37,200 bases of DNA from an uncultured Bacillales bacterium. GTDB taxonomy: Bacteria; Bacillota_I; Bacilli_A; RFN20; CAG-826. The position numbers and the translations under genes were made by a program. Positions 3,974 through 30,095 of this stretch are shown piece by piece. Below the pieces are notes generated by a model. It was not told the DNA's origin. It ran no database searches and was given only the letters and a program-made list of their open reading frames with translations. The number at the start of each line of letters is the position of its first letter. Positions within the stretch are counted from its first letter, which is position 1. The stretch lies in contig CAMJEC010000002.1 in assembly GCA_946404585.1 (NCBI GenBank), positions 1 to 37,200 of the forward strand. The letters run 5' to 3'.

Positions 3974-4002
3974 ATTTAAGCGACATGGTTATGATAATTA
4001 AG

Positions 4003-6808: not shown

Positions 6809-6809
6809 A

Positions 6810-7263: not shown

Positions 7264-7289
7264 CATTTTAGGATGAAATTTTTTACAGT

Positions 7290-9607: not shown

Positions 9608-11461
9608 ATGAAAAAGATTTTTAAGAGACTTACTTTTTTAGCGGTGCCATTCATGGTTTTAGGCTGCGCTGGTCCAATCGGTAGTAATAGTAACCAAAGC
9701 ACCTCTAATCAACAACCTTCTGTCAATAGTAGTAGCGCTAATCCTTCATCAGATAAGTCAAACAGCGCTAATCCAAGTGCTTCATCCAGTAATGGTGGTG
9801 ACCATACCCATACATTTGGTCAATGGAAGACAGAAAGCTTAGGCACAAAGATTAATGATGCCCGTTTCAAATATTCCACAATCAAATATAGAGAATGTAG
9901 TGTCTGTCATTATGAAGAAATAGATAGTCAACAAGCAGTCTTACCAGAAATTAGATTTGATTATAATCCTAATGATCCAAACGCTAACTTCGCTACTTCC
10001 GCTAGAAGTACCGATACAACTAGACCAAAAGTTAACGGTAAGTTAAGAATTACAAATGCTGGTGATAAGAACACCGCTAGTGCAATTCCTGACGTTGATA
10101 TAAAAGTCAGAGGTAACCAAACTGCTGGCTTTGATAAGAAAGGTTTCCAAATTAAATTTAATGCCTCTAAAACAAACCTCCTTGGTTTAAATGGTGGTAA
10201 GAAATTTAAGAAGTGGGTCTTATTAGCGGACGCTAAGGATACAACAATTTCCAGAACTGCTTTAGGTATGACAATGTCTAAAGGTGTTATCAGTGCTGAT
10301 TCAAATGTTTGGAGTTCTGACTTCACACCTGTTAGTGTTTACCTCAACGATAAATACTGGGGCATGTATATGCTCGCCGAACAAAAAGAAGTTAAAAACG
10401 GCAGAATCAAATTAGATGAACCAGAAGATGCAGATGAAAATCCAATTATGACCACTGACATCGGTTACTGTTTCGAATTAGACTACTACGCTAAAAACGA
10501 ACCAGCTAAAGGCGCGGATGGTGATCCAACTTTCTCTATCAACTATGGTAACTACTTTAAAAGTAGTGACTATAAGATTGAAAGCTGCTTAGCGAACTCT
10601 GGTTTAGGTCTTGTGTCAACATACACTATGAACTCAGATATCAATGATGGTCCAACAGATGCTCATACAACTGATGCAAATAGTAATCAAGTGAAATGGA
10701 TTAAAGCTAGATTACAAGCCTTATTCAATGTCTTAGGCGAAGCCGCTAAGAATAAAGTTGCTAAAGATATTAATAGTAACAACGAAGTTATTTCTACTTC
10801 CTTATCCGTTAGAAAAACAATCGAAAAGAACTTCGACCTTAACGCTTGGGCAGAAGGCTTCATTATCAATGCTGTCTGCTTACCACCAGATGTTGGTTAT
10901 TCATCATTCTATATGTCATTTAACAACGCTCCTAACGGTGATAAGAAATTAAGATATGATAACCCATGGGATTTCGATAGTAACTTCGGTAATAGAAGAA
11001 ACTTCATTGAAAAGCCAGATACAGCTTCTTCCAGTGGTGGTTGGGGTCAATCCTCATATGATCCATACTTCATGGATAGAACCGCGAATATGTGGTTACA
11101 ACTCTTAGGCAAACTTGACTTCTTCATGAATGACTATGTCAAACCAAAATGGAATGCTGCTAGAGAAAATGGCACATTTGAAGATATGGTTAAATTAGCC
11201 AAGACATACTATAAGTATTACGATAGTGAATACGCGAAGAACTTCGCTAAATGGACAACCACACAAGCCAGTGATAATAACGTTGGTAGTTACTTCAATG
11301 GTGATGGTGTTAATTCCGGTGAATTAAGAAAACCATTCGTGAACGTTAATGAACGTAAAGACGCACAAAAAGAAACACTCAGTTGGTTAGTCAAACGTGT
11401 CAATTATCTTGAAAAGAAATGGGCACCAGAAAAGAATAGAACACCTCTTTCCGCTGATTAA
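9608..11461 (+). CDS. CotH-like lipoprotein
   Basis: Signal peptide with lipobox VLGC and a Ser/Asn-rich linker. Motifs I recognise from CotH-family proteins: KKGFQIKF, DKYWGMYMLAEQKE, NPWDFDSNFG. Confidence 0.55.
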   Translation: MKKIFKRLTFLAVPFMVLGCAGPIGSNSNQSTSNQQPSVNSSSANPSSDKSNSANPSASSSNGGDHTHTFGQWKTESLGTKINDARFKYSTIKYRECSVCHYEEIDSQQAVLPEIRFDYNPNDPNANFATSARSTDTTRPKVNGKLRITNAGDKNTASAIPDVDIKVRGNQTAGFDKKGFQIKFNASKTNLLGLNGGKKFKKWVLLADAKDTTISRTALGMTMSKGVISADSNVWSSDFTPVSVYLNDKYWGMYMLAEQKEVKNGRIKLDEPEDADENPIMTTDIGYCFELDYYAKNEPAKGADGDPTFSINYGNYFKSSDYKIESCLANSGLGLVSTYTMNSDINDGPTDAHTTDANSNQVKWIKARLQALFNVLGEAAKNKVAKDINSNNEVISTSLSVRKTIEKNFDLNAWAEGFIINAVCLPPDVGYSSFYMSFNNAPNGDKKLRYDNPWDFDSNFGNRRNFIEKPDTASSSGGWGQSSYDPYFMDRTANMWLQLLGKLDFFMNDYVKPKWNAARENGTFEDMVKLAKTYYKYYDSEYAKNFAKWTTTQASDNNVGSYFNGDGVNSGELRKPFVNVNERKDAQKETLSWLVKRVNYLEKKWAPEKNRTPLSAD

Positions 11462-12625: not shown

Positions 12626-13489
12626 TTATAATGCTTTAGCCTTTTCAACAAAAGCATCTATTTTATCTTTTGATACTTTATATGTATGAGAGACTACACT
12701 AGGAGACGAACGATGGAAAGGATTCGCGGGATTATCGAAATAGTTAGTTAGCCTAACTAATTGTTTGTCTTCACTCACCGCGATGAAGAAGTCGCGTTGT
12801 AAACCATAATACACTGTTGTGTCGGGATGGAAGAAAGTATCATCTGTTACTTCTTTATAATCGAAGCTTTTAACATCTTCTAATAAAGTGAGATTGAAAT
12901 CATGCACTTCTTTTTCGTTATACATAATAGTGGTATCTCTTTCCATTCTTCCAATTGTTTCGTAGAAGTTATCTAATGTTGTTTCTTCTTCCGCTTCTTT
13001 GTTAGTGTTGTTATAGATTTCTAGCATTTCAGCGTTTCTAGCTTTAACTGCTTCAATCATTGTTGTGCTTTCTTTTTTAGAAATACTATATTCGGCATAT
13101 TGGCTTATTCTTTCATCACCTTTTTTGCCTTGAGCTAATAAATGGATGCAGTTTTCATAAACCATTAAAAACAAACTATTATAATTACCACGTGTATCAT
13201 CTAGCGTATATGTAAAACCTTCTCCTTCTACATCGGGAGTGGTTTTCTTTAAACGAATAGAGGAGATATTGTTTTTAATTATTTCTGCGACTTTGAATTT
13301 GTAGTCGTTGAAATGAGTTCTAGGGGTTTCACTAAAAACTCTACTTTCTGATCTAAGTGAAAAATAAGTAAATGCATCTTCGTTAATATCTGTTAACCAT
13401 TCTTTAATTGAAATGGTTGGGGCTTGCTGAAAGTCACACGCTGTTAATAGTGACATTGCCACTAAAGGCACTAATAATATCTTTTTCAT
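12626..13489 (-). CDS. Lipoprotein, paralogue family member 1 (function unknown)
   Basis: Start ATG 13489 (MKKILLVPLVAMSLLTAC) with GAGGAA SD. The track's ATG at 13540 lies in the conserved upstream element. Shares family features with 13616..14575, 14589..15515, 33317..34195 and 34203..35144: an xWL motif near the N-terminus, a YEN/YED-x-I motif, and a central acidic E-x-EA-K...NF segment. Confidence 0.75.
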   Translation of the reverse strand: MKKILLVPLVAMSLLTACDFQQAPTISIKEWLTDINEDAFTYFSLRSESRVFSETPRTHFNDYKFKVAEIIKNNISSIRLKKTTPDVEGEGFTYTLDDTRGNYNSLFLMVYENCIHLLAQGKKGDERISQYAEYSISKKESTTMIEAVKARNAEMLEIYNNTNKEAEEETTLDNFYETIGRMERDTTIMYNEKEVHDFNLTLLEDVKSFDYKEVTDDTFFHPDTTVYYGLQRDFFIAVSEDKQLVRLTNYFDNPANPFHRSSPSVVSHTYKVSKDKIDAFVEKAKAL

Positions 13490-13600
13490 ACATTGTTCCT
13501 CACTTTTTTCGAAGTCAATTTTATTCCATGTAAAGTTCATCCTTCTACCAAGATGGTATTTGAATCGTTATTTTTCTTGTCAGGTTAAACCTTACATTTA
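13490..13600 (-). promoter_or_regulatory. Conserved upstream element, copy B (homologous to 4003..4112)
   Basis: On the minus strand, block 1 is at 13598..13577 and block 2 at 13554..13527. It has the same dyad GTAAGGT-N3-ACCTGAC, and the distal repeat arm carries one G-to-A change. It sits between a terminator and the ATG at 13489. Confidence 0.6.
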
Positions 13601-13601
13601 T

Positions 13602-13632
13602 AAAAAAGTCGTGGGTTATTGCCCATCACGAC
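13602..13632 (-). terminator. Rho-independent terminator overlapping the stop codon of 13616..14575
   Basis: On the minus strand: GTCGTG (13632..13627) ... CACGAC (13613..13608), followed by TTTTTT (13607..13602). Confidence 0.55.
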
Positions 13633-14575
13633 CTTCTGGATAATCACCAGATATTATTTTGGATTCTAGTCTTTGAACCGTTCTTTTTGGCACTTCATAA
13701 AAACTATAGTAAGTGACTGTTTCACCTTTGTGATGAGGGAAGGCTCTTTCATATGTATATTTCACTATTAAGTAATTACGCTCTACGAGTTCACCATCTA
13801 GGACTCTATAATGTGGCTCAATATCCACACCCACCATGAGGTTTTCATCAATTTCGTATGAGAATAAGAGTGATCCCATATTCGAATCATCACTATCTTC
13901 TTTGAAGTAACTAGTCCATTTCCTACATTCTTCAAATGTTAAATCATCAAGGAAAGAGCGCTTATCATCTATATAACCTGATCCTTGATAAGAGATAGTA
14001 GGATTAGCTTCGACTGTCTTGGCATAATAGATAGCACCATCCATTGTCCCGCTCATTTTAGCAGTTTCGGTTTCTTGTACTTCGCTTTCATAAACATCAA
14101 GCATTCTATCTTTAGCGGCATTAATGATTGTTTCGCCAGCATATGGCTGCAAGTCATAATATAAGATTTGTGTATACACACCACTAGCAAAGTTAAGATC
14201 CGCACGAGTCATGATACAGTCTTCATAGATACGAAATATTACAACTTCCGCTCTTGGCTTTGGATTACGTAAGAAATACCAAAGATATTCCTCGTTATCG
14301 TTAGTATGATTAGCTTTCTTTCTAGGAGTAGCGGATGTCACATTACTTTTAATTGTATTGATAATATAGTTATCCCAGTCAACAGCGTCATTACCATCTA
14401 AATCAACAGGTCTTTTGCTTTCTGGATAGATGTTATACATATTGCTACGGGTATTTTCCGCGCCATCTAACCATTGTTCGAGAGTAATATCTTCTGGTTT
14501 ATAGGCATTGCCTTTAGCGCAGCCCGCTAATAATGAAGCGGCTAAGACGGGTATCAATAATAATGCTTTCTTCAT
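13616..14575 (-). CDS. Lipoprotein, paralogue family member 2
   Basis: MKKALLLIPVLAASLLAGC lipobox, AGAGGAA SD. It lies 13 nt downstream of member 3, so it is probably co-transcribed. Confidence 0.8.
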   Translation of the reverse strand: MKKALLLIPVLAASLLAGCAKGNAYKPEDITLEQWLDGAENTRSNMYNIYPESKRPVDLDGNDAVDWDNYIINTIKSNVTSATPRKKANHTNDNEEYLWYFLRNPKPRAEVVIFRIYEDCIMTRADLNFASGVYTQILYYDLQPYAGETIINAAKDRMLDVYESEVQETETAKMSGTMDGAIYYAKTVEANPTISYQGSGYIDDKRSFLDDLTFEECRKWTSYFKEDSDDSNMGSLLFSYEIDENLMVGVDIEPHYRVLDGELVERNYLIVKYTYERAFPHHKGETVTYYSFYEVPKRTVQRLESKIISGDYPEGRDGQ

Positions 14576-14588
14576 ATATTATTCCTCT

Positions 14589-15515
14589 CTATTCAGTCAC
14601 TAAAGAATCTAACACTTGTTTTAATTCACCGAACGCTTCCTTACTAATAAGATAAGTAGTACGAACACCATAGTGACCTTCTCGGTAGTAAGAATCCTTT
14701 ATGAATTTTGGTCTATAGTGATAGCAAACCTGAATAACGTTATAGTCATAGCCGTTACTATTAGTGATGACATCTTCTTTGCCAAGCCATAACGCTAAAT
14801 GTTCGTTAAGTTGATAAGTGAACACTGTATTATCGTCATTTAGACTAGGAACATATTCCTGGTTTGGGCTTTTTATACACTCTTTTTCTTTCAAAACATT
14901 TAAGAAAGAACGATTCTCATCTTCAATATTGTTATTGTTATATGTCATCGCAAAAGAAGTGGCTTCTTCTGCTTTTGCTAAGAAGTTTTCTATTGTGGCT
15001 TCTTGTTTTGCTAATGCGGTTTCTTGCTTATAGGTATCTTTGATTTCTTTAGCTCTTCCTACTGCAGCATCAATAATTTTCTTGCCTACTTCTACATCGT
15101 ATGCGTAATAACATCTTTGTTGATAATATTTCTTGCCCACAAAGAAATCGGTAAATGTCATGATATGATTTTCATATACATAAAGAAAGCAGCCATCTGC
15201 ATCATCTTGTTTATTTTGCATTAAATACACAAAGAATATTTCTCCAGTTTCTTCTATTCTTTTATTTTTATGTGTACAGTTACCAAGAGCGTTTTCTTTG
15301 ATAGTTTTAAGGACATAGTTTTCATAGTCCCATTCATCAGCGTCCATATCATATGATTTGAAACCTTTATAGTATAAGTTGCACCAGCCGTTCGCTAGTT
15401 TTTCATCTTCAGCATTTTCTAACCATCTATCAAGAGTGATCGTTTTTGGTTGATTTATATCACAACCAGTCATAAGAGATAGAGCAATAATAGGCACTAA
15501 TAACAATTTTTTCAT
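14589..15515 (-). CDS. Lipoprotein, paralogue family member 3
   Basis: MKKLLLVPIIALSLMTGC lipobox, TAGGAG SD. The 5' coding sequence is close to member 1 at the nucleotide level (TTATTAGTGCCT). Confidence 0.8.
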   Translation of the reverse strand: MKKLLLVPIIALSLMTGCDINQPKTITLDRWLENAEDEKLANGWCNLYYKGFKSYDMDADEWDYENYVLKTIKENALGNCTHKNKRIEETGEIFFVYLMQNKQDDADGCFLYVYENHIMTFTDFFVGKKYYQQRCYYAYDVEVGKKIIDAAVGRAKEIKDTYKQETALAKQEATIENFLAKAEEATSFAMTYNNNNIEDENRSFLNVLKEKECIKSPNQEYVPSLNDDNTVFTYQLNEHLALWLGKEDVITNSNGYDYNVIQVCYHYRPKFIKDSYYREGHYGVRTTYLISKEAFGELKQVLDSLVTE

Positions 15516-15877
15516 ACGCCACTCCTAACTTTTTTATCCACTTTATTATGCGCAAAAGGATATCGTCTATCAAGATGATAGTTATACAAAAATAAGCATA
15601 TAAGCCCCAGAAGCCATATTTTCGTTAAAAAGTTGAATATTTATCTAATTTTTATATCTGTTACAAATAAACCTTTTTATAAAAAATAAATATTTATTTA
15701 TTGATACATGCGCCTAAAGGGCATACCATTATAAATGGAAATTGAGTATAAGGTCATAGTAAGGTTGACCGTTTCTACATAGCACCGTTACTGCTATACT
15801 ACTCAGAAAAAATTTTTGAGTGAAAAAAAATACCAATTTCTATCCCAAAAGGGTATTTTTCACGAAAGGAGAAATAA

Positions 15878-18562
15878 ATGAAAAATAATTTCATTACAAA
15901 AATCATCGGCGCAACGTTGGCTTTCGCTATGATGATCGGTGGTGCTGTTGGCATTAATTCTTTTAGGGAAGCAAAAGAAGTCAATGCTGACCCAGGAGAT
16001 GAGAGTGTTTATAAGGAAGCCAGGTTTGGTGCCGACTATAACAACAATGGTGTATCTTCTTATACAGATACATGGACAGCAACTTATAATGGATTCACTG
16101 TCTCTCTATCAAATTTCAACAACTACAACAATGGTTGGGCTTATGTAAAGTGTGGTAGAAAGAACAACGCTTCTGTCGCGACAATCAGCACATCAGCAGC
16201 AATAGATCAGCCGATAACTAAAGTGGATGTAACAATTGATTCCATCACAGCCGGTAAGGTAAATTCTATTAAACTTTTTAAATCTGCTGATGGCTCTAGT
16301 TGGGCGGAGGTTGGATCTTATGCCAAAGAATCTGGAACAAAAAGTGTTACATTAGCGAACCCTTCTACCGATCTTTATTACAAACTCGAATTCGATTGTG
16401 CGAGTAATACCGCCAATGGCTTTGTGCAAGTATCAAAAGTAGAGTACTATTACATTGAGCCTACTGTTGGAACAAGTTATACAGTGACTTTTAATTCTTT
16501 AGGCGGCGATAGCGTTAATGATAGAGTTGTTTCCGAAGGCGCAACAATTGCATCCTTACCAACCGCGGAAAAAGCAAAAAACACAACAACTCAAACAAAA
16601 TATGAATTCGAAGGATGGTACATTTTATCAAATTCAGATAATCCAAATAATCCTTCGTTCGAAGGTGCAACAAAATTCACTTCTTCTACACAAGTTAATA
16701 GCGACTTAACGCTTTATGCAAAATATACTGAAACACACTACAATGTAGTAACTTTTGATACAGACGGAGGCTCTGAAGTTGAAAGTGTCGAAGTTGATAA
16801 TGGTGGTACTGTTGCCAGACCTGCTAACCCAACAAAGAGTGGTTATCAATTCGATGGTTGGTATACAAACGAAGACGTTGAATATGATTTCAGTTCTACT
16901 ATCACAAACAGAAACTTCACCTTGTACGCAAGATGGACATCAATTGCCATTGAAGAAAATGGTCTATTTGTTAAAGTCACAAGTGCTGAAGATATGATTG
17001 ACGATGGTAAATATTTAATCGTGTACGAAAGTGGAAATGTTGCATTTAATGGCAGTTTAGACACACTTGATGTCGCCTCAAATACAGTTGATGTTGATTA
17101 CGACGGTGAATACATTTTGAAAGATAATAATACAAAAATTGCATATTTCACCATTAACACTACAAACAAAAAAATCATTTCTGCATTTGGACAATTTATC
17201 GGACAAGATACTTATGATAATGGTTTGGACACATCTGTTTCTGGAGGTGACGACAATAACTATAACAACGTTGTCTCATTCGACAATAATGGAAATGCAG
17301 TTATTACCGCAGCAGGAAATACAACTTTGAGATACAATACTGCGTCCAATCAGTTAAGATTTAGATATTACAAGTCTGGTCAAGAAGCAATCCAATTGTA
17401 TAAGTTTGTTAGAACATACACTGTCACATTTGATACTAATGATGGTTCAAATATTGATCCAGTAACTGTTCTTGATGGCAACTTATTAACTCTTCCAAAT
17501 AATCCTACTAAGGCGCCAGATGCCAATTATAACTATAGTTTTGTTGGTTGGTATACCGATGAAGAATTAATGGATCCATTTGTTTCTTCAACGCCTATCA
17601 CGGAAGATATCACTCTTTATGCAAAATATTCTGCAGAAGAAATTGACAACCCAGATGCATATTTGGGTTCAGCAACTTCTGTTGCGTCACTAAGTGCTAG
17701 AGAAACATCTGCCTATGGTAGCCCTAAAACAATTTCAAAAACAGTTGCCCAAGTATCTGGCACAACAACTAATGGTACGCAAGTTGCTGAACTTGTTTTG
17801 AATTCTTCGATCACTGTTTCAGTTAATGCTAACGGAAACAATGGTAAGGTTTATGCCAACGGCGCAGAATGGCGCGTTTATCAAGGTGATAATGCCCAAA
17901 TTAACGTTGCTGCAGCAAATAGTGGAAAAATTAGTTCAATCACATTTGAATTTGATGTTGATAAAGGCGGCGTTTTGAAATACGGCGATGAAACCGTTAA
18001 CAGTGGAGAAGCAGTAGAAATAAATAATTTATCCAGTGCGATTTTCACAGTAGGAAATTCAACAGCTGCTACAAATGGCCAAGTTAAAATTACTGCGATT
18101 AGCGTAACTTATTCTGAAAATGAAGTTACTGTCGATAACGTTTCTATGAAACTTGGATTGACTATTCCAGCAGAACAATGGGGACAAATTGCTGCAAAAT
18201 GGACCATTTCCAACTATGGTATAATGTTATTCAGAACTACTGAAGAAAGATTAGGATTAGTTTCTACTGTTGAAGAATACTTTACTGCAGACCCAGCAAA
18301 TGTTACTATCGTTGATAATGGAGATGGTACAGCTCCAGATCCTGATGGCGATGAATATAGATTCTCAGTGGTGATTAATTTTAGAACTACTGCAGCCTTT
18401 GCTAGATATTACTGTGCCGCACCATTTATTGTTATTAATGGCACATATTATTTCTTAGATGAAATGAGAGTATCAGTTAATTCATTAGCTAGTGATTATC
18501 TTGCAAATGGTGGATCAAACTTATCAACTCAAGCTTTGACATATTTGTCAACAACGCACTAA
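15878..18562 (+). CDS. Large secreted protein with three Listeria-Bacteroides (InlB B / Flg_new) repeats and a C-terminal domain shared with 18868..21945
   Basis: GGAG lies 6 nt upstream of the ATG. Signal peptide (...KEVNA/DP). Repeats end in GWY...TLYAKYT, GWYT...TLYARWT and GWYT...TLYAKYS. The C-terminal ~150 aa align with the C-terminus of the next large protein (TIPxxxW, YGxM, VEE, YCAAxxIVxNxTYYFLxE, SLA). Confidence 0.85.
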   Translation: MKNNFITKIIGATLAFAMMIGGAVGINSFREAKEVNADPGDESVYKEARFGADYNNNGVSSYTDTWTATYNGFTVSLSNFNNYNNGWAYVKCGRKNNASVATISTSAAIDQPITKVDVTIDSITAGKVNSIKLFKSADGSSWAEVGSYAKESGTKSVTLANPSTDLYYKLEFDCASNTANGFVQVSKVEYYYIEPTVGTSYTVTFNSLGGDSVNDRVVSEGATIASLPTAEKAKNTTTQTKYEFEGWYILSNSDNPNNPSFEGATKFTSSTQVNSDLTLYAKYTETHYNVVTFDTDGGSEVESVEVDNGGTVARPANPTKSGYQFDGWYTNEDVEYDFSSTITNRNFTLYARWTSIAIEENGLFVKVTSAEDMIDDGKYLIVYESGNVAFNGSLDTLDVASNTVDVDYDGEYILKDNNTKIAYFTINTTNKKIISAFGQFIGQDTYDNGLDTSVSGGDDNNYNNVVSFDNNGNAVITAAGNTTLRYNTASNQLRFRYYKSGQEAIQLYKFVRTYTVTFDTNDGSNIDPVTVLDGNLLTLPNNPTKAPDANYNYSFVGWYTDEELMDPFVSSTPITEDITLYAKYSAEEIDNPDAYLGSATSVASLSARETSAYGSPKTISKTVAQVSGTTTNGTQVAELVLNSSITVSVNANGNNGKVYANGAEWRVYQGDNAQINVAAANSGKISSITFEFDVDKGGVLKYGDETVNSGEAVEINNLSSAIFTVGNSTAATNGQVKITAISVTYSENEVTVDNVSMKLGLTIPAEQWGQIAAKWTISNYGIMLFRTTEERLGLVSTVEEYFTADPANVTIVDNGDGTAPDPDGDEYRFSVVINFRTTAAFARYYCAAPFIVINGTYYFLDEMRVSVNSLASDYLANGGSNLSTQALTYLSTTH

Positions 18563-18574
18563 GGAGAGAAGATT

Positions 18575-18697
18575 ATGAATGACGAAAAGAAATTTTTAAA
18601 ACCAGAATTAGAAATTATTTCATTTTCTAATGAAGATGTTATTCTTACAAGCAATGTTCTCGACGAAATTGATGAGGATAATCCAGTCGAGCATTAA
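18575..18697 (+). CDS. Unannotated 40-aa ORF, leader-like N-terminus (candidate RiPP precursor or partner peptide)
   Basis: Not in the ORF track (<60 aa). GGAGAG (18563..18568) lies 6 nt before the ATG. Product MNDEKKFLKPELEIISFSNEDVILTSNVLDEIDEDNPVEH, stop TAA at 18695..18697, followed by a terminator. The N-terminal 26 aa are homologous to 21951..22076. Confidence 0.6.
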   Translation: MNDEKKFLKPELEIISFSNEDVILTSNVLDEIDEDNPVEH

Positions 18698-18728: not shown

Positions 18729-18752
18729 GGCGGATTTTATTCCGCCTTTTTT
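18729..18752 (+). terminator. Rho-independent terminator
   Basis: GGCGGA (18729..18734) / TCCGCC (18741..18746), 6-nt loop, TTTTTT tail. Confidence 0.8.
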
Positions 18753-18867: not shown

Positions 18868-21800
18868 ATGAAAATGAATAAAAAAACAATTGCAATAACA
18901 TCTTTATTTACTGTTTTTGCTTTAGGTGTTGGCTTAATTATTAATGCCAGTGTTCCACATGCTGAAGTTGACGCGAGCAATTATTCAGTTAGATCTGTTC
19001 CAACAACTATAAATTTAAATGATGCCAGTGAATCCACAATTAGGGGTTATTATGCTTCTTTGAACAATCTTTCAGAAAATGAGAGAAAAGGCACTAATTT
19101 ATTGAAGAATTTAAAACCAATTCTTAAGAATGGCCAAAAGTATCTTTCATATGGAGGCAGCGCTACAACAGCTGTTTGGCAAGCATATGAAATCGTTGAT
19201 AGAGACTGGAATAAGTCTCCTGCATCTTCTATAAGTGGATATAATGCTCAAACAAATACAATTACTGGCTATGTCTACGGAAAAAGTAATTCTAATGTGG
19301 GTAGCAATCCATATATTCATGCTTTATATGTAAATCGAAACGTCGAAAATCAACAAAGAGCATGGGGAAACCACAATCAAGTTCAATGGGGAATTAACCA
19401 AGAACACCTTTGGGCTAAATCATGCGGCTTCCAAGACGAGTCTCCAGCAGCTGGTGCTAGAGGCGATTTAATGCATCTTTGGGCGGGAAATGGCAGAGTT
19501 AATGGCGATACTCATAGCAATTATTATTATGGATATGTTGACACAACAAAAACTTATAACAATGCTGGAAGTTACGCTTCAACATTATCAGGAAATTTGC
19601 GTGGTTACTCTAAAACACTTGGTGGATCAGTAACAGTATTTGAACCACAAGATTCTGATAAAGGCGATATTGCTAGAGCTATTTTCTATATGGCCGCTAG
19701 ATATAACTATTTATCTGGTAGCGATTCAGATGGAATTGATGCTGGCAACCCAAACCTTGAAATCGTTAACGATGTAACTTCTTGGCAAAATAATGGTTAT
19801 CAATCAACAACAACTAGAACTGGTAAGATGGGTATCATCCAAGATTTGCTTAAATGGAATGAAATTGATCCACCAGATGAATTCGAAATTCACAGAAACA
19901 ATCTTTGCTACAACAATTTTACTAAAAATAGAAACCCATTTATTGATTATCCAAGTTGGGCTAATGCTATTTGGGGAACAGTAGATGCAAATGGCAATTA
20001 CAACTCAACACCTGCTACTTTTGCCACTCCATCAACTGATGCAATTGGATCATCCACAGTTAATCCTGTGTTTAGTATCTCTAATACACAATTGAATTTA
20101 GAAGTTGGTGAAACTGCTACTCTTTCTGCCACAAACGCAGATGGTAACATTACTTGGTCAGTAGACAATAGTGCTATTGCAAGTTTAGATAAAACAACAA
20201 CCGTAAATAACGGAAATGTTACTATCACTGCATTAAGTGCTGGCTCTACAACAATTACCGCTACTAATGGTAATCAAAGTTTAACTTGTAATTTAACTGT
20301 TTCCGAACAGACAATGGAAATTTCTTTAGATAGAAGTACCGCTAGTATTGAAGTTGGTCAAACCATAACTTTAGTAGCAACCACAACTCCAAACAATGCA
20401 CAAGTTACATGGCTATCTAGTGATGAAGACGTGGCCATAGTATCAAATGGTGTTATAACTGGTTTATCTGCTGGTACTACTGTTATTACCGCTAAATTGT
20501 CAGACAGCGTGAAGGCTCAATGCACTGTTACCGTGACAAGTAATGGTGGAAGTGGCGAACAATCATCTATAGAAATCGCTACAAGTATTTCAGCTGGTGA
20601 TACAGTCTACTTAACAGCCAATTCTGCTGATATGCAATTTAATGGCATTTCTTCAACAAGCACTAAGTATGGTTTAGGTGTTTCGTTTGAAGATGAACCA
20701 GATACAGACACATATGCTCTTGAAGTTGCTACTGGCGCAAACAATGGAACGTATGCTTTCAAAATCAAAGAAGGAAATAATGCTAATAAATATCTCTCTT
20801 GGACATCAGGAAATAGTTTAACAACCGGCAACAGTATAGATACTAATAGTTCTTGGTATGTTGATTTTGATAATGCTGGGAATGTAACTATTAAAAACTC
20901 CGCAGATCAAACTAGAGTAATTTGGTGGAATGTTAGTGATCCAAGGTTTGCTTGCTATACCGGCAAGAGCAATGGTAGTAGCTACTATTTTACTCAATTA
21001 TGGAAAGTCGCTGCTCCAATCGAAGAAGAATATGTTGAAGACTATCTTGATTCGGTTGAATCACTCATGGCTATTGGTGGAAATGAAACATCTACTGGTT
21101 CAACACAAAACGGACCAAAAACAATCGATTTCTCCACTCTTGGATTAACCAGTGGTGCCCAATACACCGAACCATTCGATGGTGATGGTTTCACTGTTAC
21201 ATTCGCTGGTGGTGGCAACGATGGAAAGTATTATGATACTGGCACTGGCATAAGAACCTACGGCGATGGAACAATCACAATTCATTCTGAGGAAACGATA
21301 ACAGGAATCACAATGACTTGGAGTGGAACCAACAAGCCTGAAAATGGTAATGTAGTCGATGTTGGTACATATGACGCATCTACAGGTGTATGGACGGGTT
21401 CTGAGAACACCATTGTCTTCACAAGACCTAGTGGAAGCGGGCACTGGAGATTGCAAGCAGTTACTGTGACATTTGATAATTCTCAAGTACCAACTGTGAC
21501 AGTAGATCATGCATATATGGAATTTGGTATTACTATTCCAGTTTCCGATTGGGATGCCATCAACGCCAATGAAGATTGGGAAATTGCCGATTATGGTGTA
21601 ATGTTTGTTAAGAAAACAACATTAGAAGATACATATCATGCATCATCTGTTGAGGAAGCATATTACAATGGTGATTATCTTAAAGATGTTCATAAAGGTA
21701 ATGGTGAAAATCCATATAGTATTCTCGACATGTATATATTCACCGCGAAATTAAGTATTAATAACGAATCAAATTATGATGTTGTTTATTGTGCTGCTTC

Positions 21801-21945
21801 GTATATAGTAGTAAATGATACTTATTACTTCTTAAAGGAAGAAAGAGAATCAATCCGTTCTTTAGCCGCTCAATCTATTGGTCAAGGAACATCTGAATTA
21901 TCTGATGATGCATTAACCATCTTAAAAGGCAATTATGGAGGATAA
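18868..21945 (+). CDS. Large secreted endonuclease I-family nuclease fused to two Big_2 domains and a shared C-terminal region
   Basis: Signal peptide. Endonuclease_1 motifs NQEHLWAKS, DLMHLWAGNGRVNGDTHSN, EPQDSDKGDIARAIFYMAARY, NRNPFIDYPSWANAIWG. Two Big_2 repeats (LEVGETATLSA...ITALSAGSTTITA; IEVGQTITLVA...ITGLSAGTTVITA). The C-terminus is homologous to 15878..18562. There is no obvious SD, so the start (18868 or 18874) is uncertain. Confidence 0.85.
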   Translation: MKMNKKTIAITSLFTVFALGVGLIINASVPHAEVDASNYSVRSVPTTINLNDASESTIRGYYASLNNLSENERKGTNLLKNLKPILKNGQKYLSYGGSATTAVWQAYEIVDRDWNKSPASSISGYNAQTNTITGYVYGKSNSNVGSNPYIHALYVNRNVENQQRAWGNHNQVQWGINQEHLWAKSCGFQDESPAAGARGDLMHLWAGNGRVNGDTHSNYYYGYVDTTKTYNNAGSYASTLSGNLRGYSKTLGGSVTVFEPQDSDKGDIARAIFYMAARYNYLSGSDSDGIDAGNPNLEIVNDVTSWQNNGYQSTTTRTGKMGIIQDLLKWNEIDPPDEFEIHRNNLCYNNFTKNRNPFIDYPSWANAIWGTVDANGNYNSTPATFATPSTDAIGSSTVNPVFSISNTQLNLEVGETATLSATNADGNITWSVDNSAIASLDKTTTVNNGNVTITALSAGSTTITATNGNQSLTCNLTVSEQTMEISLDRSTASIEVGQTITLVATTTPNNAQVTWLSSDEDVAIVSNGVITGLSAGTTVITAKLSDSVKAQCTVTVTSNGGSGEQSSIEIATSISAGDTVYLTANSADMQFNGISSTSTKYGLGVSFEDEPDTDTYALEVATGANNGTYAFKIKEGNNANKYLSWTSGNSLTTGNSIDTNSSWYVDFDNAGNVTIKNSADQTRVIWWNVSDPRFACYTGKSNGSSYYFTQLWKVAAPIEEEYVEDYLDSVESLMAIGGNETSTGSTQNGPKTIDFSTLGLTSGAQYTEPFDGDGFTVTFAGGGNDGKYYDTGTGIRTYGDGTITIHSEETITGITMTWSGTNKPENGNVVDVGTYDASTGVWTGSENTIVFTRPSGSGHWRLQAVTVTFDNSQVPTVTVDHAYMEFGITIPVSDWDAINANEDWEIADYGVMFVKKTTLEDTYHASSVEEAYYNGDYLKDVHKGNGENPYSILDMYIFTAKLSINNESNYDVVYCAASYIVVNDTYYFLKEERESIRSLAAQSIGQGTSELSDDALTILKGNYGG

Positions 21946-21950: not shown

Positions 21951-22076
21951 ATGGATGAAAAAAGATTTATAAAACCAGAAGCTGACGTGGTTGCATTCAC
22001 ATTTGAAGATATCATCACAGCAAGCGGCGATAATCCTTGGGTTATTGGTGGTGCTACTGATGAAGAAACCCCATAA
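21951..22076 (+). CDS. Unannotated 41-aa ORF, leader-like N-terminus (candidate RiPP precursor)
   Basis: Not in the ORF track. GGAGG (21937..21941) lies 9 nt before the ATG. Product MDEKRFIKPEADVVAFTFEDIITASGDNPWVIGGATDEETP, stop at 22074..22076, terminator follows. It lies 72 nt upstream of the kinase/PqqD operon. Confidence 0.6.
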   Translation: MDEKRFIKPEADVVAFTFEDIITASGDNPWVIGGATDEETP

Positions 22077-22148: not shown

Positions 22149-22865
22149 ATGGTTAACTTTAAAATCGAAATTGCTGATATTGTCGTCGAGATTAATGCTT
22201 TTAATGAATCTACTTTAAAGTACTGTAGTGATTTTCTATCTGATAAAGAATCTAACTATGTCATTACTATGACTAAAGAAGATTTAGAAAACGAAAAGCA
22301 CATTAATGAAGACGGTAAAGTATACGCGAATGAAGAGATATCAGCGTTATATCGTAAGATCGCAGATATATTCGTAGAGGAAGATATCTTAGTGGTGCAT
22401 GGTTCATCCTTTAAAGTGGATACCTCCGCTTTTATTGTGACCGCGAGAAGTGGCGTGGGTAAATCCACTCATGTTAATTTATTAAAAGAGTATCTTAAAG
22501 ATAGATTTACTTATATTAATGACGATAAACCTTTATTAAAGATTAAAGGTGATAAGTTAACTCTCTATTCTTCTCCGTGGAACGGAAAAGAAAGAAGAGG
22601 TAATAATATAAATGCACCTTTAAGAAGTATTATCTTCCTTAATAGGGGCATCACTAATACATATAAGAAACTTGATAATAAAGAAGTCTATTTTAGATTA
22701 TTAAGTCAAATATATTTACCAAGAGATAAAACTAAAAGAGAAAAAGCCTTAAAGTTAATTGATATATTATTAAAGAGTGTTTCTTTCTATGAAATAAATG
22801 TTAATACTGATATATCAAGCGCAGAGATGACTAGTGAAAGGATTATTAATTATGAAATTAAATGA
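22149..22865 (+). CDS. HPr-kinase-like P-loop protein (RiPP-associated HprK-type kinase candidate)
   Basis: VVHGSSFKVDTSAFIVTARSGVGKSTH matches the HprK C-terminal-domain pattern (H-x-S/A ... G-x-SG-x-GKS). TATAAT (22137..22142) lies 6 nt before the ATG and there is no SD. Confidence 0.55.
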   Translation: MVNFKIEIADIVVEINAFNESTLKYCSDFLSDKESNYVITMTKEDLENEKHINEDGKVYANEEISALYRKIADIFVEEDILVVHGSSFKVDTSAFIVTARSGVGKSTHVNLLKEYLKDRFTYINDDKPLLKIKGDKLTLYSSPWNGKERRGNNINAPLRSIIFLNRGITNTYKKLDNKEVYFRLLSQIYLPRDKTKREKALKLIDILLKSVSFYEINVNTDISSAEMTSERIINYEIK

Positions 22866-23124
22866 GAACTTTTTAATCCATCAATCTGATAATGGTGAAA
22901 TCCTTATCCCAGTAGGGGATGAGACTAAAAGATTCCATGGTGTTGTTAAACTTAATGATACTGGTAGTGAAATTGTTCACTTATTAGAAAATAATGACTT
23001 ATCGCTAGAAGATGTTCTTAATCACTTTTATCAAGAATGCCCTAATGATGATAAAGAAGTAATTAAAAAGGGAGTAAGTGAGTTTATTAATAAGCTCGTC
23101 GAGATCAATGCCATCATCTTATAA
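22852..23124 (+). CDS. PqqD-family protein (RiPP recognition element, RRE)
   Basis: 90 aa. The pattern ...LIPVGDETKRFHGVVKLNDTGSEIVHLLENNDLSLEDVLNHFYQECPNDDKEVIKKGVSEFINKLVEINAI fits the PqqD winged-helix layout. ATG 22852 is preferred (AAAGGA upstream) over GTG 22834. It overlaps the kinase gene by 14 nt. Confidence 0.7.
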   Translation: MKLNENFLIHQSDNGEILIPVGDETKRFHGVVKLNDTGSEIVHLLENNDLSLEDVLNHFYQECPNDDKEVIKKGVSEFINKLVEINAIIL

Positions 23125-23539
23125 ATTTGAAGATGTATTAAATAAAGACGGAGAACTAATATTCACTAATGTTGGTTACTCTATGTATCCTCTAATAAGA
23201 CAAAGAGAGGATGTTTTAAGAATAGTTAAATCTGATAACTATAAGAAAGGTGATATTGTCTTATATAAATCTGAAATAGACCATTATGTTTTGCATAGAA
23301 TTCTTAAAATTAAGAAAGATAAAGTGATACTCGCAGGAGATTATAACTACTTTAAAGATAAACCTATCGCAAAAGATATGATTTTAGGCGTTTTAAGGAC
23401 TATTACTAAGAAGGACGGTAAAATAATCGACCTATCTAAAGATAAGAAGGCTAGAAGGTTCTTTTACACTAATTTCTTTTATATCAAAGCATTCTTCCAA
23501 ATAATTGGTAAGATATTACATATCAGGAAAGTAAAATAA
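23108..23539 (+). CDS. S24/S26-family serine peptidase (signal-peptidase/LexA-like fold)
   Basis: GYSMYP (nucleophile Ser), KKGDIVLY, HRILKIKK (candidate general-base Lys), ILAGDYN. ATG 23108 overlaps the PqqD gene by 17 nt; 23078 is an alternative start. Confidence 0.65.
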   Translation: MPSSYKFEDVLNKDGELIFTNVGYSMYPLIRQREDVLRIVKSDNYKKGDIVLYKSEIDHYVLHRILKIKKDKVILAGDYNYFKDKPIAKDMILGVLRTITKKDGKIIDLSKDKKARRFFYTNFFYIKAFFQIIGKILHIRKVK

Positions 23540-23611: not shown

Positions 23612-24514
23612 ATGAATAAATTCATATCCATTAAAGAAGCATCAATCAAGTGGAACATTTCGGAAAGAAGTGTTCGTAATTACTGCGCTCATGGAAGAGT
23701 TCCTGGTGCTGTTTTTAATAATGGTCGTTGGCTCATACCAGAAGAGGCTAAAAAACCATTAAGACTTAATGAGAAGAATAATAAGAATCATCTTTTGGAA
23801 AGACTAAGAGAAGAAAAGAAACATCAAATCAGTGGAGGAATATATCACAAGCTTCAAATTGATTTAACTTATAATTCAAACCACATTGAAGGCAGTGAAC
23901 TAACTCACGATCAAACCAGGTATATTTTTGAAACAAGAACCATTGGTTTAGAAAATAAAAACTCATCAGTAAGAGTGGATGATGTTGTTGAGACGATTAA
24001 TCATTTTTCTGCGATTGATAGGGTGATTGATTTTGCTAACTATGAACTTAGTGAGCCGTTTATCAAAGAACTCCATAAAATATTAAAAACAGGAACATCT
24101 GATTCCAGACTTCCATGGTTTGCCGTTGGTGAATATAAAAAAAGAGCAAATGAAGTGGGTGATATGGCCACTACATCTCCACAACTTGTTGGAAATGAAA
24201 TGAAAAAGCTTATTAGTGATTATAATCAAAAAGAGAACCATTCTTTTGAAGAGATAGTGGAATTTCATGTCAAATTTGAAAGAATTCATCCATTCCAAGA
24301 CGGTAATGGTAGAGTGGGTCGTTTGATTATTCTTAAAGAGTGTTTGAAAAACAACATTGTTCCTTTTGTCATCCTTGATAGCAAAAAGATGTTTTATTAT
24401 CGTGGGCTTAAAAACTGGGATCAGCAACGTGGTTGGCTATTAGATACTTGTTTAGATGGGCAAGATACAGTAAAAGCGTACCTAGATTATTTTGGAATAG
24501 TGTATCGTAATTAA
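23612..24514 (+). CDS. Fic-domain protein with N-terminal HTH (putative AMPylase / nucleotidyl- or phosphoryl-transferase)
   Basis: Intact Fic motif HPFQDGNGRVGR. N-terminal excisionase/MerR-like HTH (ISIKEASIKWNISERSVRNYCAHGRVPGA). Confidence 0.85.
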   Translation: MNKFISIKEASIKWNISERSVRNYCAHGRVPGAVFNNGRWLIPEEAKKPLRLNEKNNKNHLLERLREEKKHQISGGIYHKLQIDLTYNSNHIEGSELTHDQTRYIFETRTIGLENKNSSVRVDDVVETINHFSAIDRVIDFANYELSEPFIKELHKILKTGTSDSRLPWFAVGEYKKRANEVGDMATTSPQLVGNEMKKLISDYNQKENHSFEEIVEFHVKFERIHPFQDGNGRVGRLIILKECLKNNIVPFVILDSKKMFYYRGLKNWDQQRGWLLDTCLDGQDTVKAYLDYFGIVYRN

Positions 24515-24524: not shown

Positions 24525-26165
24525 ATGAGAAACAAAGAAACACTAAAGTTTATTACTAATAATATTAAAGGCAGTAAGAAGAAAGTTCTTATTCTTTCAA
24601 TAGTCCAAACCTTATTAGGTGTTTTAACAGTGGCCTTCTCTTTTATGCTTAAGCCTGTGATAACCGCTCTTGAAGATAAGAACAATGATTTATTAATTAG
24701 AAATGTCATTATTCTTGCTTCTATCGCGGTTGTTCTTATCATCTTACAAATCTTTTATCGCTTATATTACGAAGTCAGTTATATCGATATTGAAAATAGA
24801 CTTAAAAATAACTTATTTAAAACAATCTTAAATAAAGATTATCAAGAAATTAAGAATACCCATGATGAAGAATGGATTCATAGATTAACTAGTGATACCG
24901 CAGTGGTGGCTAATTCTATCCTATCCATCTTACCTTCATTATGCAGAATGGTGGTGCAATTGGTCTTAGCGCTCGCCGCTATCATTGTTTTATTCCCAGT
25001 CTTTGGTTTATCCTTATTACCATTTATCTTATTAGTTATTTTAATCACTTATTTTATGAGGAAACGCTTGAAAGCGTATCATCATTTAACGCAAGAAAAA
25101 GATGGCAGGGCTAAAGTGTTCTTATCTGAATCTCTTCAAGGTTTAGCGATTGTCCATTCATTCGTAAAGGAAGATGTCTTTACTAAGAAGAATGAACAAA
25201 ACTTAGAAGAATATAAGAAAGCGAGATTAAAAAGAAATACATTTAATGTTCTTTGTTCTGTCGGCTTTATCGTGGTCTATTATGCTTTCTATATTCTCGC
25301 GATTATTTTCTGTGGGCAAAAGATTATTAACGGTGATATGACTATTGGTTTCTTAAGTGCGATCGTCGCGTTACTATCTCAATTAACAGGTCCATTAGGT
25401 AATATTACTTCTATTATTCCTAAGTACTACTCCTTATTAGCGAGTGGTGAACGTTTAAGAATGGAAAATAATGTAGACTTCACTTATTTATCTAAGGATG
25501 AAATTAATAACTTCTATAATAATGAATTCAAATCATTATCCATTAATAACGTTTCTTATTCATATCTAGATAAATATGGTAATAAGGTAGAAGCCTTAAA
25601 GAACTTTAATTTAAAGATTAATAAAAATGAGAAGATCTTAATCAAAGGTCATTCTGGTGGTGGTAAGTCCACTTTATTTAAGTTAATGCTTTCTTTATTA
25701 ACTCCTGAAAGTGGTGAACTATTAATTAATGAAGAACCACTTAATAAAAGATATGAGAAACTATTTGCCTATGTTCCTCAAGATAACTTATTAATGGAAG
25801 GCACAATTAAGGAAGTAATTACTTTATTTAGCGATAATCCTAATAATGAATTATTTAATAAAGCACTAGATATTAGTGAATCATCATCTTTTGTTAATGC
25901 TTTAGCGAATAAAGGTGATACATATCTCAATGAAAAAGGTAGTGGCCTCTCCTTAGGGGAAATGGAAAGAATCGCAATCGCTAGAGCCATCTATAGTGAT
26001 TCTCCAATACTTCTTTTAGATGAATGCAGTGCTTCTTTAGACTCTGATACTGAAGCTAAAGTGATGTCTAATATCTTAAATATGCAAAATAAGACAATTA
26101 TCTTAATCTCACATCATAAATATGATGAGATACTATTTGATAAAGTCATCGATTTAGGTGAATAA
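24525..26165 (+). CDS. ABC exporter, fused TMD-NBD half-transporter
   Basis: Six predicted TM helices. Walker A GHSGGGKST, signature LSLGE, Walker B ILLLDE. No N-terminal C39 peptidase domain. AAGGAAG SD. Confidence 0.9.
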   Translation: MRNKETLKFITNNIKGSKKKVLILSIVQTLLGVLTVAFSFMLKPVITALEDKNNDLLIRNVIILASIAVVLIILQIFYRLYYEVSYIDIENRLKNNLFKTILNKDYQEIKNTHDEEWIHRLTSDTAVVANSILSILPSLCRMVVQLVLALAAIIVLFPVFGLSLLPFILLVILITYFMRKRLKAYHHLTQEKDGRAKVFLSESLQGLAIVHSFVKEDVFTKKNEQNLEEYKKARLKRNTFNVLCSVGFIVVYYAFYILAIIFCGQKIINGDMTIGFLSAIVALLSQLTGPLGNITSIIPKYYSLLASGERLRMENNVDFTYLSKDEINNFYNNEFKSLSINNVSYSYLDKYGNKVEALKNFNLKINKNEKILIKGHSGGGKSTLFKLMLSLLTPESGELLINEEPLNKRYEKLFAYVPQDNLLMEGTIKEVITLFSDNPNNELFNKALDISESSSFVNALANKGDTYLNEKGSGLSLGEMERIAIARAIYSDSPILLLDECSASLDSDTEAKVMSNILNMQNKTIILISHHKYDEILFDKVIDLGE

Positions 26166-27302
26166 ATGGGTAAAGAAACATATATCAAATATCTAAAAGA
26201 CTATCTACATCTATTCTCCCTTTATCTAAATAAAAAGGAAGAACCTTCTTTTAAGATTAATGAAAGTAACTTTAATATTTTTCTTAATCTATCTAAGAAG
26301 CATTCATTGACCGCTTTATTTTATAAGGTGGTTAAGGACACCAAAGTGGATATCAAAGAAGAATATCTAAAAGTATTAGAACAATATTATTTTTCTAATG
26401 TTCAGAAGCATGTCTTATTTGATAAAGAAAGAAAAGAACTGTTTGAATATTGTAATAAAAACAATATCATCCATCTTCCACTTAAAGGCATTATTTTAAA
26501 ACATTATTATCCTGACCCATACACTAGAGAATTCGCCGATAACGATATCTATTTCGGAGGTAACGATGAACTAATTAAAAAGTTCTTCGTTGATAGGGGT
26601 TATGAAGTAGAGCTATATCGGAAAAGTAATCATGACGTGTATTTAAAAAAGCCATGTTTGAACTTTGAAATGCATCGAGCCTTATTTGGGGAAACTGGTG
26701 ATAATGAAAAGGTTGTTAAATATTTTAAACATCCAAACATTAGATTAGTTAACCCATTAGCGATGGAAGCCTATTTACCACTAGATGATTTCTACGTCTA
26801 TTTCACCGCACATTCTTATAAGCATTTCCATATCGCAGGATGCGGACTTAGAACTCTCGTTGACTATTATGTTTTCTTAAAGAAAAACAAAGAAGATGAA
26901 TTACTAGATTTTAAATATATTAATAAACAACTAGAAAAGATGGATCTAGTGGATTTCTCTAATCAAATATCCACTTTAGCGCTTAAAGTCTTTGATGAAC
27001 AAGAACTATCTAATGAAGAAATGGAAACACTGTTATTTATCGCTAGCAGTGGGACATATGGAACCTTAGAAAATAGAGTAAATAAAGGTGTTAAAGAAAA
27101 AGGTAAAACTAGATATTTCTTTTCTAGAATATTCCCTCCATATAGATTCTATAAATCCGCTTATCCATGGGCATATAAGGTACCTATATTAATTCCTATT
27201 GCCTGGTTATGCAGATTATTTAGAATCCTATTTAAAAATCCAAAAAGAGCGACATCTGAATTAAAGATGATATCTAAATCCAAAGAAGAGAAAGATAAGT
27301 AA
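26166..27302 (+). CDS. Uncharacterised nucleotidyltransferase family protein (NTP_transf_5 / PF14907-like)
   Basis: The ATG directly abuts the ABC stop codon (TAAATG). The layout HSLTALFY ... IIHLPLKGIILKHYYPDPYTREFADNDIYF ... LNFEMHRALF matches the PF14907 pattern (KG..l...Y.dp..R...D.D, then veLH). Confidence 0.7.
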   Translation: MGKETYIKYLKDYLHLFSLYLNKKEEPSFKINESNFNIFLNLSKKHSLTALFYKVVKDTKVDIKEEYLKVLEQYYFSNVQKHVLFDKERKELFEYCNKNNIIHLPLKGIILKHYYPDPYTREFADNDIYFGGNDELIKKFFVDRGYEVELYRKSNHDVYLKKPCLNFEMHRALFGETGDNEKVVKYFKHPNIRLVNPLAMEAYLPLDDFYVYFTAHSYKHFHIAGCGLRTLVDYYVFLKKNKEDELLDFKYINKQLEKMDLVDFSNQISTLALKVFDEQELSNEEMETLLFIASSGTYGTLENRVNKGVKEKGKTRYFFSRIFPPYRFYKSAYPWAYKVPILIPIAWLCRLFRILFKNPKRATSELKMISKSKEEKDK

Positions 27303-30071: not shown

Positions 30072-30095
30072 ATATTACTTAGAGAGGTATTAGTC

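Follow-up and report, generated by a model that had tools for sequence, protein, structure and literature searches.

Several described systems resemble the gene set studied here. In the lasso peptide clusters of Firmicutes an HPr-kinase homolog phosphorylates the C-terminal Ser of the precursor (paeninodin, pade cluster), and a PF14907-type nucleotidyltransferase, PsmN, adds one or two hexoses to that phosphate (pseudomycoidin, psm cluster). This enzyme is sometimes fused to the leader peptidase B2 (PMC8498205, PMC6993621). The leaders of such precursors, for example MKKDWTIPTLEVLDINMTMA/G, where the slash marks the leader/core junction, follow an aromatic-x-x-P...T-x/ logic (PMC7533575). Cassettes pairing an HprK-related kinase with a PqqD-family protein are also defined bioinformatically (NCBIfam TIGR04352 HprK_rel_A with TIGR04353, and TIGR04249 ScmC of the SynChlorMet cassette), but they lack a known function. 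Finally, dedicated signal peptidases of the SipW type are encoded next to their substrates, as is B. subtilis SipW for TasA/TapA.

Here, we analyse a 40-codon ORF (sORF1) in a window of 37,200 nucleotides from an uncultured Bacillales bacterium (GenBank assembly GCA_946404585.1, contig CAMJEC010000002.1, positions 1 to 37,200, forward strand). sORF1 is a real, conserved gene for a short peptide with a conserved leader and a hypervariable acidic tail. It belongs to a large family that co-occurs with a lasso-like set of modification and export genes, without a detected lasso cyclase, and most members lie directly behind genes for secreted proteins.

The small ORF is a conserved gene

A sequence-only reading had described sORF1, its ribosome binding site, a strong terminator and a paralogous small ORF (sORF2). 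All of these are present, Table 1, and the observation holds. sORF1 encodes MNDEKKFLKPELEIISFSNEDVILTSNVLDEIDEDNPVEH. The terminator folds far better than shuffled sequences (z -4.5, 0 of 200 shuffles as good). The two small ORFs align over 25 residues at 48% identity (tblastn E 1.4e-6 inside the window), and there is no third copy in the window.

Table 1. Features of the window around sORF1, with the evidence for each assignment.
Position	Strand	Feature	Evidence
15724..15821	+	Purine riboswitch aptamer (RF00167), heading the transcription unit that ends with sORF1	Rfam gathering-level hit, 56.9 bits, E 2.3e-7
15878..18562	+	894-aa secreted protein with an N-terminal signal or anchor, three Listeria-Bacteroides (Flg_new) repeats and a ~150-aa C-terminal domain (CTD, roughly 18125..18559); upstream partner of sORF1	PF09479, E 3e-39; CTD homologous to the C-terminus of the 1025-aa protein and of the partner proteins in other loci
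18563..18568	+	Shine-Dalgarno GGAGAG, 6 nt before the ATG of sORF1	The upstream gene ends with TAA at 18560-18562; TAAGGAGA is conserved in all six orthologous variants
18575..18697	+	sORF1, 40-aa precursor peptide; leader residues 1-26 (MNDEKKFLKPELEIISFSNEDVILTS), 14-aa core NVLDEIDEDNPVEH	Conservation of frame, start and stop; family profile
18729..18752	+	Intrinsic terminator closing the unit of riboswitch, 894-aa gene and sORF1	Terminator scan: GGCGGATTTTATTCCGCC at 18729-18746 plus T6; hairpin GGCGG..CCGCC kept in orthologs although the flanks diverge
18868..21945	+	1025-aa secreted Endonuclease I + Big_2 protein with the same CTD; upstream partner of sORF2	PF04231, 1.6e-25; PF02368, 1.2e-15; CTD HMM, E 3e-54
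21951..22076	+	sORF2, 41-aa paralog (MDEKRFIKPEADVVAFTFEDIITAS / GDNPWVIGGATDEETP)	Starts 5 nt after the stop of the 1025-aa gene
22149..22865	+	HprK-related P-loop kinase (238 aa)	AF2 pLDDT 88.8; Foldseek top hits only PEP carboxykinase and HPr kinase/phosphatase, E 2e-6 to 1e-4; invariant motifs H..S, SG.GKST and YINDDKPL (as one pattern, ...H.S...S..GKST...YINDDKPL)
22834..23124	+	PqqD-family protein (RiPP recognition element, RRE), about 90 aa	PF05402, E 3.4e-9, 37.3 bits against a cutoff of 23.4; weak hits to TIGR03859 and lasso_PqqD
23078..23539	+	S26-type (SipW/archaeal-like, Ser/His) signal-peptidase homolog, 153 aa; no N-terminal membrane segment; true start probably the Met at MPSSYKF	TIGR02228, E 4e-12; TIGR02227, E 1e-5; PF00717; G.SM.P, LHR and GDN invariant in ten diverse homologs
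23612..24514	+	Fic-domain protein with an HTH; variable insert, not part of the conserved core	PF02661, E 7e-20
24525..26165	+	ABC exporter, fused permease and ATPase, no C39 peptidase domain	PF00664 and PF00005; NCBIfam exporter families
26166..27302	+	PF14907 (NTP_transf_5) nucleotidyltransferase, the family of PsmN	PF14907, E 1.2e-32; DxD motif EFADNDIYF

An ORF of 40 codons means little by itself in DNA of 34% GC, as 70 ORFs of at least 30 aa overlap the 9 kb around it, and the gene caller did not record sORF1 on the window's own contig. It could then be a chance ORF in the 3' UTR or terminator region of the 894-aa gene, or a conserved RNA element. We therefore searched public assemblies with a profile of the two peptides, which identified ten small called proteins in two ortholog groups, one with NVLDEIDEDNPVEH-type tails and one with NPWVIGGATDEETP-type tails, and we compared the DNA of the sORF1 orthologs. 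Six distinct DNA variants have no indel and the same start and stop. The pS is 0.14-0.49 against a pN of 0.01-0.21, i.e. the ratio ranges from 0.07 to 0.5 and is typically 0.25-0.3. The Shine-Dalgarno motif and the whole ORF are conserved, while immediately after the TAA stop the sequences diverge with indels and only the terminator hairpin is kept.

The sequence-only reading had named two outcomes that would speak against a gene: loss of the reading frame in related genomes, and conservation of the nucleotides only as part of a 3' UTR structure. Neither is observed, as the frame is kept under purifying selection, the coding stretch has no unusual RNA structure (z -1.28) and no Rfam family covers it. 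Together with the hundreds of homologous small proteins described below, this effectively refutes a chance ORF or RNA element, and our confidence that the gene is real is high. We also considered a readthrough or frameshift fusion to the 894-aa protein, with which sORF1 is in frame. However, in other loci the gaps fall in all three phases and each small ORF has its own Shine-Dalgarno and ATG, so this was rejected. An attenuator-type leader peptide was rejected because the ORF lies downstream of a gene, not upstream, and is followed by a plain terminator.

A large family with a conserved leader and a variable acidic tail

An exhaustive HMMER search of 1.84 billion representatives with the ten-sequence profile gives 274 clusters (50% identity) at E <= 1e-3, almost all of 31-72 aa. 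Members share a 26-aa N-terminal leader (M..EKKF[IL]KPE.E[IV][IV].F..ED[IV]I.TS; consensus MMKEKKFLKPEAEIIEFSNEDIITTS). Among 173 distinct members, the mean pairwise identity is 50% for the leader against 21% for the tail. Pro10, Phe17, Asp21, Ile23 and Ser26 are at or near invariant, although this is partly by construction of our parsing pattern, which 173 of 179 sequences fit. The tail has a median length of 16 aa (range 6-36) and consists of Gly 16.6%, Asp 16.1%, Glu 10.5%, Asn 8%, Pro 7.3% and Trp 3.8%, with a mean net charge of -4.2. Of the 173 tails, 26, including that of sORF1, have no Ser, Thr or Tyr, and only three end in Ser. In a metagenome scan, a 10-member alignment reached only close relatives, while a 40-member alignment has no conserved stretch of 7-10 columns.

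No Pfam or NCBIfam family matches either small ORF at E <= 0.1, and no source annotation gives a name. Literature searches on PF14907 enzymes and RiPPs, on RREs with a nucleotidyltransferase, kinase and signal peptidase, and on RRE-Finder with HPr kinases returned nothing or only lasso papers. Thus, we found no description of this peptide family or of a cyclase-free kinase/PqqD/S26/nucleotidyltransferase cluster, although most subscription journals were outside the search and an earlier description is not excluded.

The sequence-only reading proposed a real gene for a leader-bearing precursor recognised by an RRE, based on the conserved N-terminus and divergent C-terminus of the two paralogs. 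Our analysis supports this interpretation. The conserved-leader, variable-tail pattern holds across at least 173 family members, and the PqqD-type RRE gene, 4.1 kb downstream of sORF1, co-occurs with family members in about 25 independent loci. Binding of the leader by the RRE, and modification and cleavage of the peptide, were not measured here. That reading also pointed to FLKPEL as the closer match to the RRE-binding YxxPxL pattern; as no lasso cyclase was found, this is an analogy and not evidence of lasso membership. It did not notice the missing cyclase, the coupling of the peptide genes to the preceding secreted-protein genes rather than to the enzyme genes, or the purine riboswitch.

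The family co-occurs with a five-gene operon

Downstream of sORF2 lie genes for a kinase, a PqqD-family protein, a peptidase, an ABC exporter and a nucleotidyltransferase, with a Fic gene inserted. The kinase was not identified by a PDB sequence search with the single sequence, which gave nothing, and a profile found only weak P-loop, PEP carboxykinase and HPr kinase hits, so the fold search was needed to settle its identity. Of 18 diverse homologs, 17 hit TIGR04249 ScmC, 10 hit HprK_rel_A and 8 hit HprK_rel_B. All these hits are far below the curated cutoffs and the window's own protein does not hit at E <= 0.01, i.e. the kinase is related to these families but not a member. The motifs kept in the peptidase are the Ser/His S26B-type catalytic set.

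A genome scan with the kinase returned 48 loci from rumen and gut MAGs, labelled Bacilli, Erysipelotrichaceae, Mollicutes, Bacteroides or Bacteroidales, Christensenellaceae, Clostridia, Acholeplasmataceae and Izemoplasmatales; the nearest named genome is 'Bacilli bacterium RGIG8901'. Individual loci from the genome scans are denoted L001, L009 and so on. In about 25 loci the order kinase-PqqD-S26-ABC-nucleotidyltransferase is contiguous or overlapping. The Fic gene is present in L010, L012 and L067 but absent in L001, L014 and L016. A leader HMM finds family members in 25 of 49 kinase-anchored sources, including nearly all loci with the full operon and enough upstream DNA; however, L024, L027 and L030 have the full operon and no recognisable small ORF. 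In a scan anchored on the small ORF instead, the operon follows in all four loci with enough downstream sequence.

The gene set suggests that sORF1 could be a lasso precursor whose cyclase lies elsewhere in the genome. In favour of this, the leader has aromatic-x-x-P-x-L and Thr at -2, the core has D7, E8 and D9, and the cluster carries the lasso-associated genes K, B1 (PqqD), D and N, with the RRE above its cutoff. However, neither an Asn-synthetase-like cyclase nor a transglutaminase-like B2 occurs among the 29 ORFs of the window that were scanned against Pfam or NCBIfam (27 of the 35 ORFs of at least 100 aa). The only peptidase in the operon is S24/S26-like, and the contiguous or overlapping genes of about 25 loci leave no room for a cyclase. 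The core of sORF1 starts with Asn. In the family, 55 of 173 cores start with G, A, S or C and 110 of 173 have D or E at positions 7-9, which in cores that are 27% Asp+Glu is near what composition alone gives, so the ring criteria do not settle the matter either way. Overall, we consider a lasso precursor very unlikely.

Two other classes were compared. Double-glycine-leader bacteriocins do not fit, as there is no GG motif at the junction and the 546-aa ABC protein has only membrane and ATPase domains. An unmodified pheromone-type or regulatory peptide that merely uses the exporter, with the kinase and nucleotidyltransferase acting on something else, would agree with the short precursor, the adjacent exporter and a tail that varies between strains (L009 against the window). 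However, no receptor or two-component pair is adjacent to the operon in the conserved core, and a dedicated RRE in an operon with the kinase and nucleotidyltransferase points to peptide-directed enzymes, which makes this reading improbable.

The peptide genes follow genes for secreted proteins with a shared C-terminal domain

The small ORFs are attached to protein genes and not to the enzyme genes. Of 38 non-redundant small ORFs, 33 start -40 to +50 nt (29 of them -4 to +38 nt) after an ORF of 169-2198 aa. These upstream proteins differ in their catalytic or repeat parts but share a homologous ~150-aa CTD, across Bacilli, the bins labelled Bacteroides or Bacteroidales, and one Clostridia locus. 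In the loci, 23-24 of 35 CTD proteins are directly followed by a small ORF, and all lie within 10 kb upstream of the operon. In the scan anchored on the small ORF, 8 of 8 follow a CTD protein. The core type travels with the CTD type (L018/L001a and L009b/L023b, where letters mark copies within a locus). In the closest genome (L009, kinase 97% identical) the tails are quite different and the large proteins divergent, i.e. the CTD-protein/small-ORF module is hypervariable relative to the enzymes.

A purine riboswitch heads the unit of the 894-aa gene, sORF1 and the terminator. The same riboswitch precedes the first CTD-protein gene in L001, L009, L016, L017 and L023. It appears to be of the guanine type (C before the P1 3' strand), an assignment made by manual reading. 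The AF2 model of the CTD is a predicted beta-sandwich of only moderate confidence (pLDDT 65.5), and its Foldseek matches are non-significant, generic beta-sandwiches without a significant PDB match. As a homolog search with the CTD returned only one hit, the alignment stayed shallow, and we draw no functional conclusion from the model.

These features raise the possibility that the peptide is chiefly a functional partner of the secreted protein encoded just upstream, acting through the CTD. It could serve as a ligand or anchor after export, as an inhibitor or chaperone, or as a donor strand, and the operon would be its maturation and export route. This differs from our main explanation only in the biological role and is compatible with it for biosynthesis. 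However, linkage alone does not show interaction, about 11 CTD proteins have no small ORF after them, the upstream ORFs in L020-L022 share a different C-terminus, and in Izemoplasmatales (L046, L047) the small ORF follows the nucleotidyltransferase gene as in an ordinary RiPP cluster. We regard this role as tentative. Because of the acidic core we also considered a DNA-mimic nuclease inhibitor, an idea that was not examined further, but only one of the two partner proteins is a nuclease.

A more far-reaching version, which we consider doubtful but not excluded, is that the peptides are not stand-alone antibiotics but matured, exported acidic partners of a previously unrecognised CTD carried by purine-starvation-induced surface and secreted proteins, including an extracellular nuclease. 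The operon would then be a dedicated system making a strain-specific peptide ligand, for example to tether, activate or neutralise its cognate CTD protein. This would be a new link between RiPP-type chemistry and protein secretion or nucleic-acid scavenging in rumen and gut Bacilli.

A possible pathway

Our best explanation, to which we give a probability of about 0.7, is that sORF1 is a translated gene for the precursor of a ribosomally made, post-translationally processed and exported peptide, the substrate of the adjacent operon. We count as established by the analysis that sORF1 is co-transcribed with and translationally coupled to the 894-aa gene in a unit running from the riboswitch to the terminator, that it has a family-wide leader and a hypervariable acidic core, and that in the loci examined the family always lies within about 10 kb of the contiguous operon. 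The chemistry is inferred by analogy, with low confidence, and no modification, binding or export has been shown. In this view, the PqqD protein would bind the leader through F-L-K-P-E-L and the beta-strand-like EIISF and DVILTS segments, and present the peptide to the enzymes. The kinase would phosphorylate a hydroxyl group, the nucleotidyltransferase would elaborate that phosphate as PsmN does, and the S26-type peptidase would cut at the ..x-T-S junction, where the small -1 residue and the aliphatic or Thr -3 residue fit signal-peptidase-I rules. The ABC transporter would export the product, which would be linear and not a lasso.

The only hydroxyl conserved across the family is Ser26 at the leader/core junction, which makes it the most economical candidate both for the kinase site and for the -1 residue of the cut. 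However, known HprK-type RiPP kinases act on a C-terminal Ser (PMC8498205), whereas sORF1 ends in His, and with 26 of 173 cores lacking any Ser, Thr or Tyr, core phosphorylation cannot be universal. The attachment of the peptide genes to the secreted-protein genes also speaks against a simple substrate relation; in L001, three unrelated genes separate sORF2 from the kinase.

If correct, this defines a large, unannotated peptide family, abundant in rumen and gut Bacilli, Erysipelotrichaceae-like and some Clostridia MAGs, and a new biosynthetic logic. The kinase, RRE and nucleotidyltransferase, known only as accessory tailoring genes of lasso peptides, would form the core of a cyclase-free pathway together with a signal-peptidase-type leader protease. 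It would provide a concrete, testable substrate set for the poorly understood PF14907 enzymes and HprK-related kinases. The tight coupling to secreted proteins sharing one CTD, under a purine riboswitch, points to a role in nutrient scavenging or surface biology that is unusual for RiPPs.

Comparison with known systems

The gene set is the accessory and handling set of Firmicute lasso clusters. As in the paeninodin and pseudomycoidin clusters, there is a short precursor with an aromatic-x-x-P leader motif and Thr near the cleavage site, a discrete PqqD-type RRE (B1), an HPr-kinase-like kinase (PadeK/PsmK) with a conserved DD metal site, here YINDDKPL, a PF14907 nucleotidyltransferase with a DxD motif, and an ABC exporter. 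A peptidase-nucleotidyltransferase fusion exists in some clusters, and in L040 the S26 peptidase is fused to the nucleotidyltransferase. However, the class-defining cyclase and B2 were not found and an S26 Ser/His signal-peptidase homolog takes the peptidase slot. The leader is about 5 residues longer between Pro and Thr, nearly all cores do not end in Ser, and the precursor genes sit behind large secreted-protein genes. Therefore, we do not classify sORF1 as a lasso precursor; in our best reading it works like an RRE-dependent RiPP precursor of a cyclase-free, probably linear, probably phospho-modified peptide.

With the HprK_rel_A and ScmC cassettes the locus shares the pairing of the kinase with a PqqD-family protein, but the partner genes differ, as there are no radical SAM/SPASM genes here. 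As with SipW, an S26B-like Ser/His peptidase is encoded next to its presumed substrates. However, the protein here has no N-terminal membrane anchor and is probably cytoplasmic, it scores below the equivalog cutoffs (46.2 against 51.85 bits), and its presumed substrate is a leader peptide that is not a Sec signal.

Genomic context of the peptide genes

The features observed around the small peptide gene sORF1 and its paralog sORF2, in the window and in the related loci retrieved by the genome scans (designated L), are listed below. A purine riboswitch aptamer (RF00167) sits directly upstream of the first large gene for a protein with the shared C-terminal domain (CTD), both in the window and in five related loci. 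The unit formed by the 894-aa gene and sORF1 is therefore probably purine-regulated. By manual alignment, the discriminator base is C, i.e. the guanine type. The second CTD protein is an extracellular Endonuclease I, which suggests a nucleic-acid or purine scavenging context.

Coordinates of the features in the window and in the related loci.
Source	Coordinates	Strand	Feature
Window	57..8381		Region rich in signalling genes (left end)
Window	12626..15515 and 9608..11461	- and +	Three paralogous genes of about 300 aa and a CotH-kinase-like gene
Window	15724..15821	+	Purine riboswitch aptamer (RF00167)
L001	3417..3514		Purine riboswitch aptamer
L009	469..566		Purine riboswitch aptamer
L016	1512..1609		Purine riboswitch aptamer
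L017	3635..3734		Purine riboswitch aptamer
L023	3066..3163		Purine riboswitch aptamer
Window	~18125..18559 and ~21490..21942		CTD of the two large secreted proteins
Window	18575..18697		sORF1
Window	23612..24514		Fic/HTH gene
Window	27362..33065		P-type ATPase (896 aa) and M6/reprolysin-like metalloprotease (1006 aa)
L040	3007..4602		Fusion of S26-type peptidase and PF14907 nucleotidyltransferase (489 aa)

The CTD is an uncharacterised domain of ~150 aa, shared by otherwise different secreted proteins, and there is no Pfam hit for this part. In addition to the window, CTD proteins are found in L001, L005, L009-L018, L023, L026, L029, L031, L051, L056 and L064-L070. They cluster, often in tandem, just upstream of the kinase operon, and the motif is roughly ..MRFGG.I....W..L....YG(V/I)M......Y.AA.YI...G..YF..E...SV..LA..YL.

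We compared the window with L009 (JAGAYY010000057, Bacilli bacterium RGIG8901). The kinase, PqqD and peptidase are 97-100% identical to those of the window. However, the two upstream large proteins are only 38% and 77% identical, and the sORF tails are unrelated (DVGDIIDEGNTPDLPSGGQ; TDVGDVDDTYIE). This indicates strain-level replacement or diversification of the CTD-protein/sORF module.

The exact sORF1 sequence is on record only from Logan and ENA contigs, whereas sORF2 is recorded on the 37,200-bp NCBI contig. The gene caller evidently missed sORF1 in the window's own record.

Flanking genes

The three paralogous genes, one of them with a lipoprotein-like N-terminus (MKKLLLVPIIALSLMTGC), and the CotH-kinase-like gene have no known function or relation to the system, but they travel with the cluster in L001, L018, L023 and L017. 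The P-type ATPase and the metalloprotease lie immediately downstream of the nucleotidyltransferase, and the ATPase is also downstream in L001 and L014. The signalling genes at the left end of the window, for which we found no evident link to the peptide genes, are a hybrid histidine kinase/response regulator, two GGDEF proteins, an HD-GYP-like HD_5 protein and an HTH_3 regulator.

Variation in the operon

The Fic/HTH gene is inserted between the S26-type peptidase and the ABC exporter. It is present in some relatives (L010, L012, L067) and absent in others (L001, L014, L016), so it looks like a mobile or accessory insert within the operon. Three loci (L027, L030, L024) carry the full five-gene operon, but no recognisable family sORF was found within the DNA examined, up to 10 kb on each side. 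In these cases, the precursors may be located elsewhere or be too divergent for our HMM. In L040, a single ORF fuses the S26-type peptidase to the PF14907 nucleotidyltransferase, which parallels the B2-nucleotidyltransferase fusions reported in lasso clusters.
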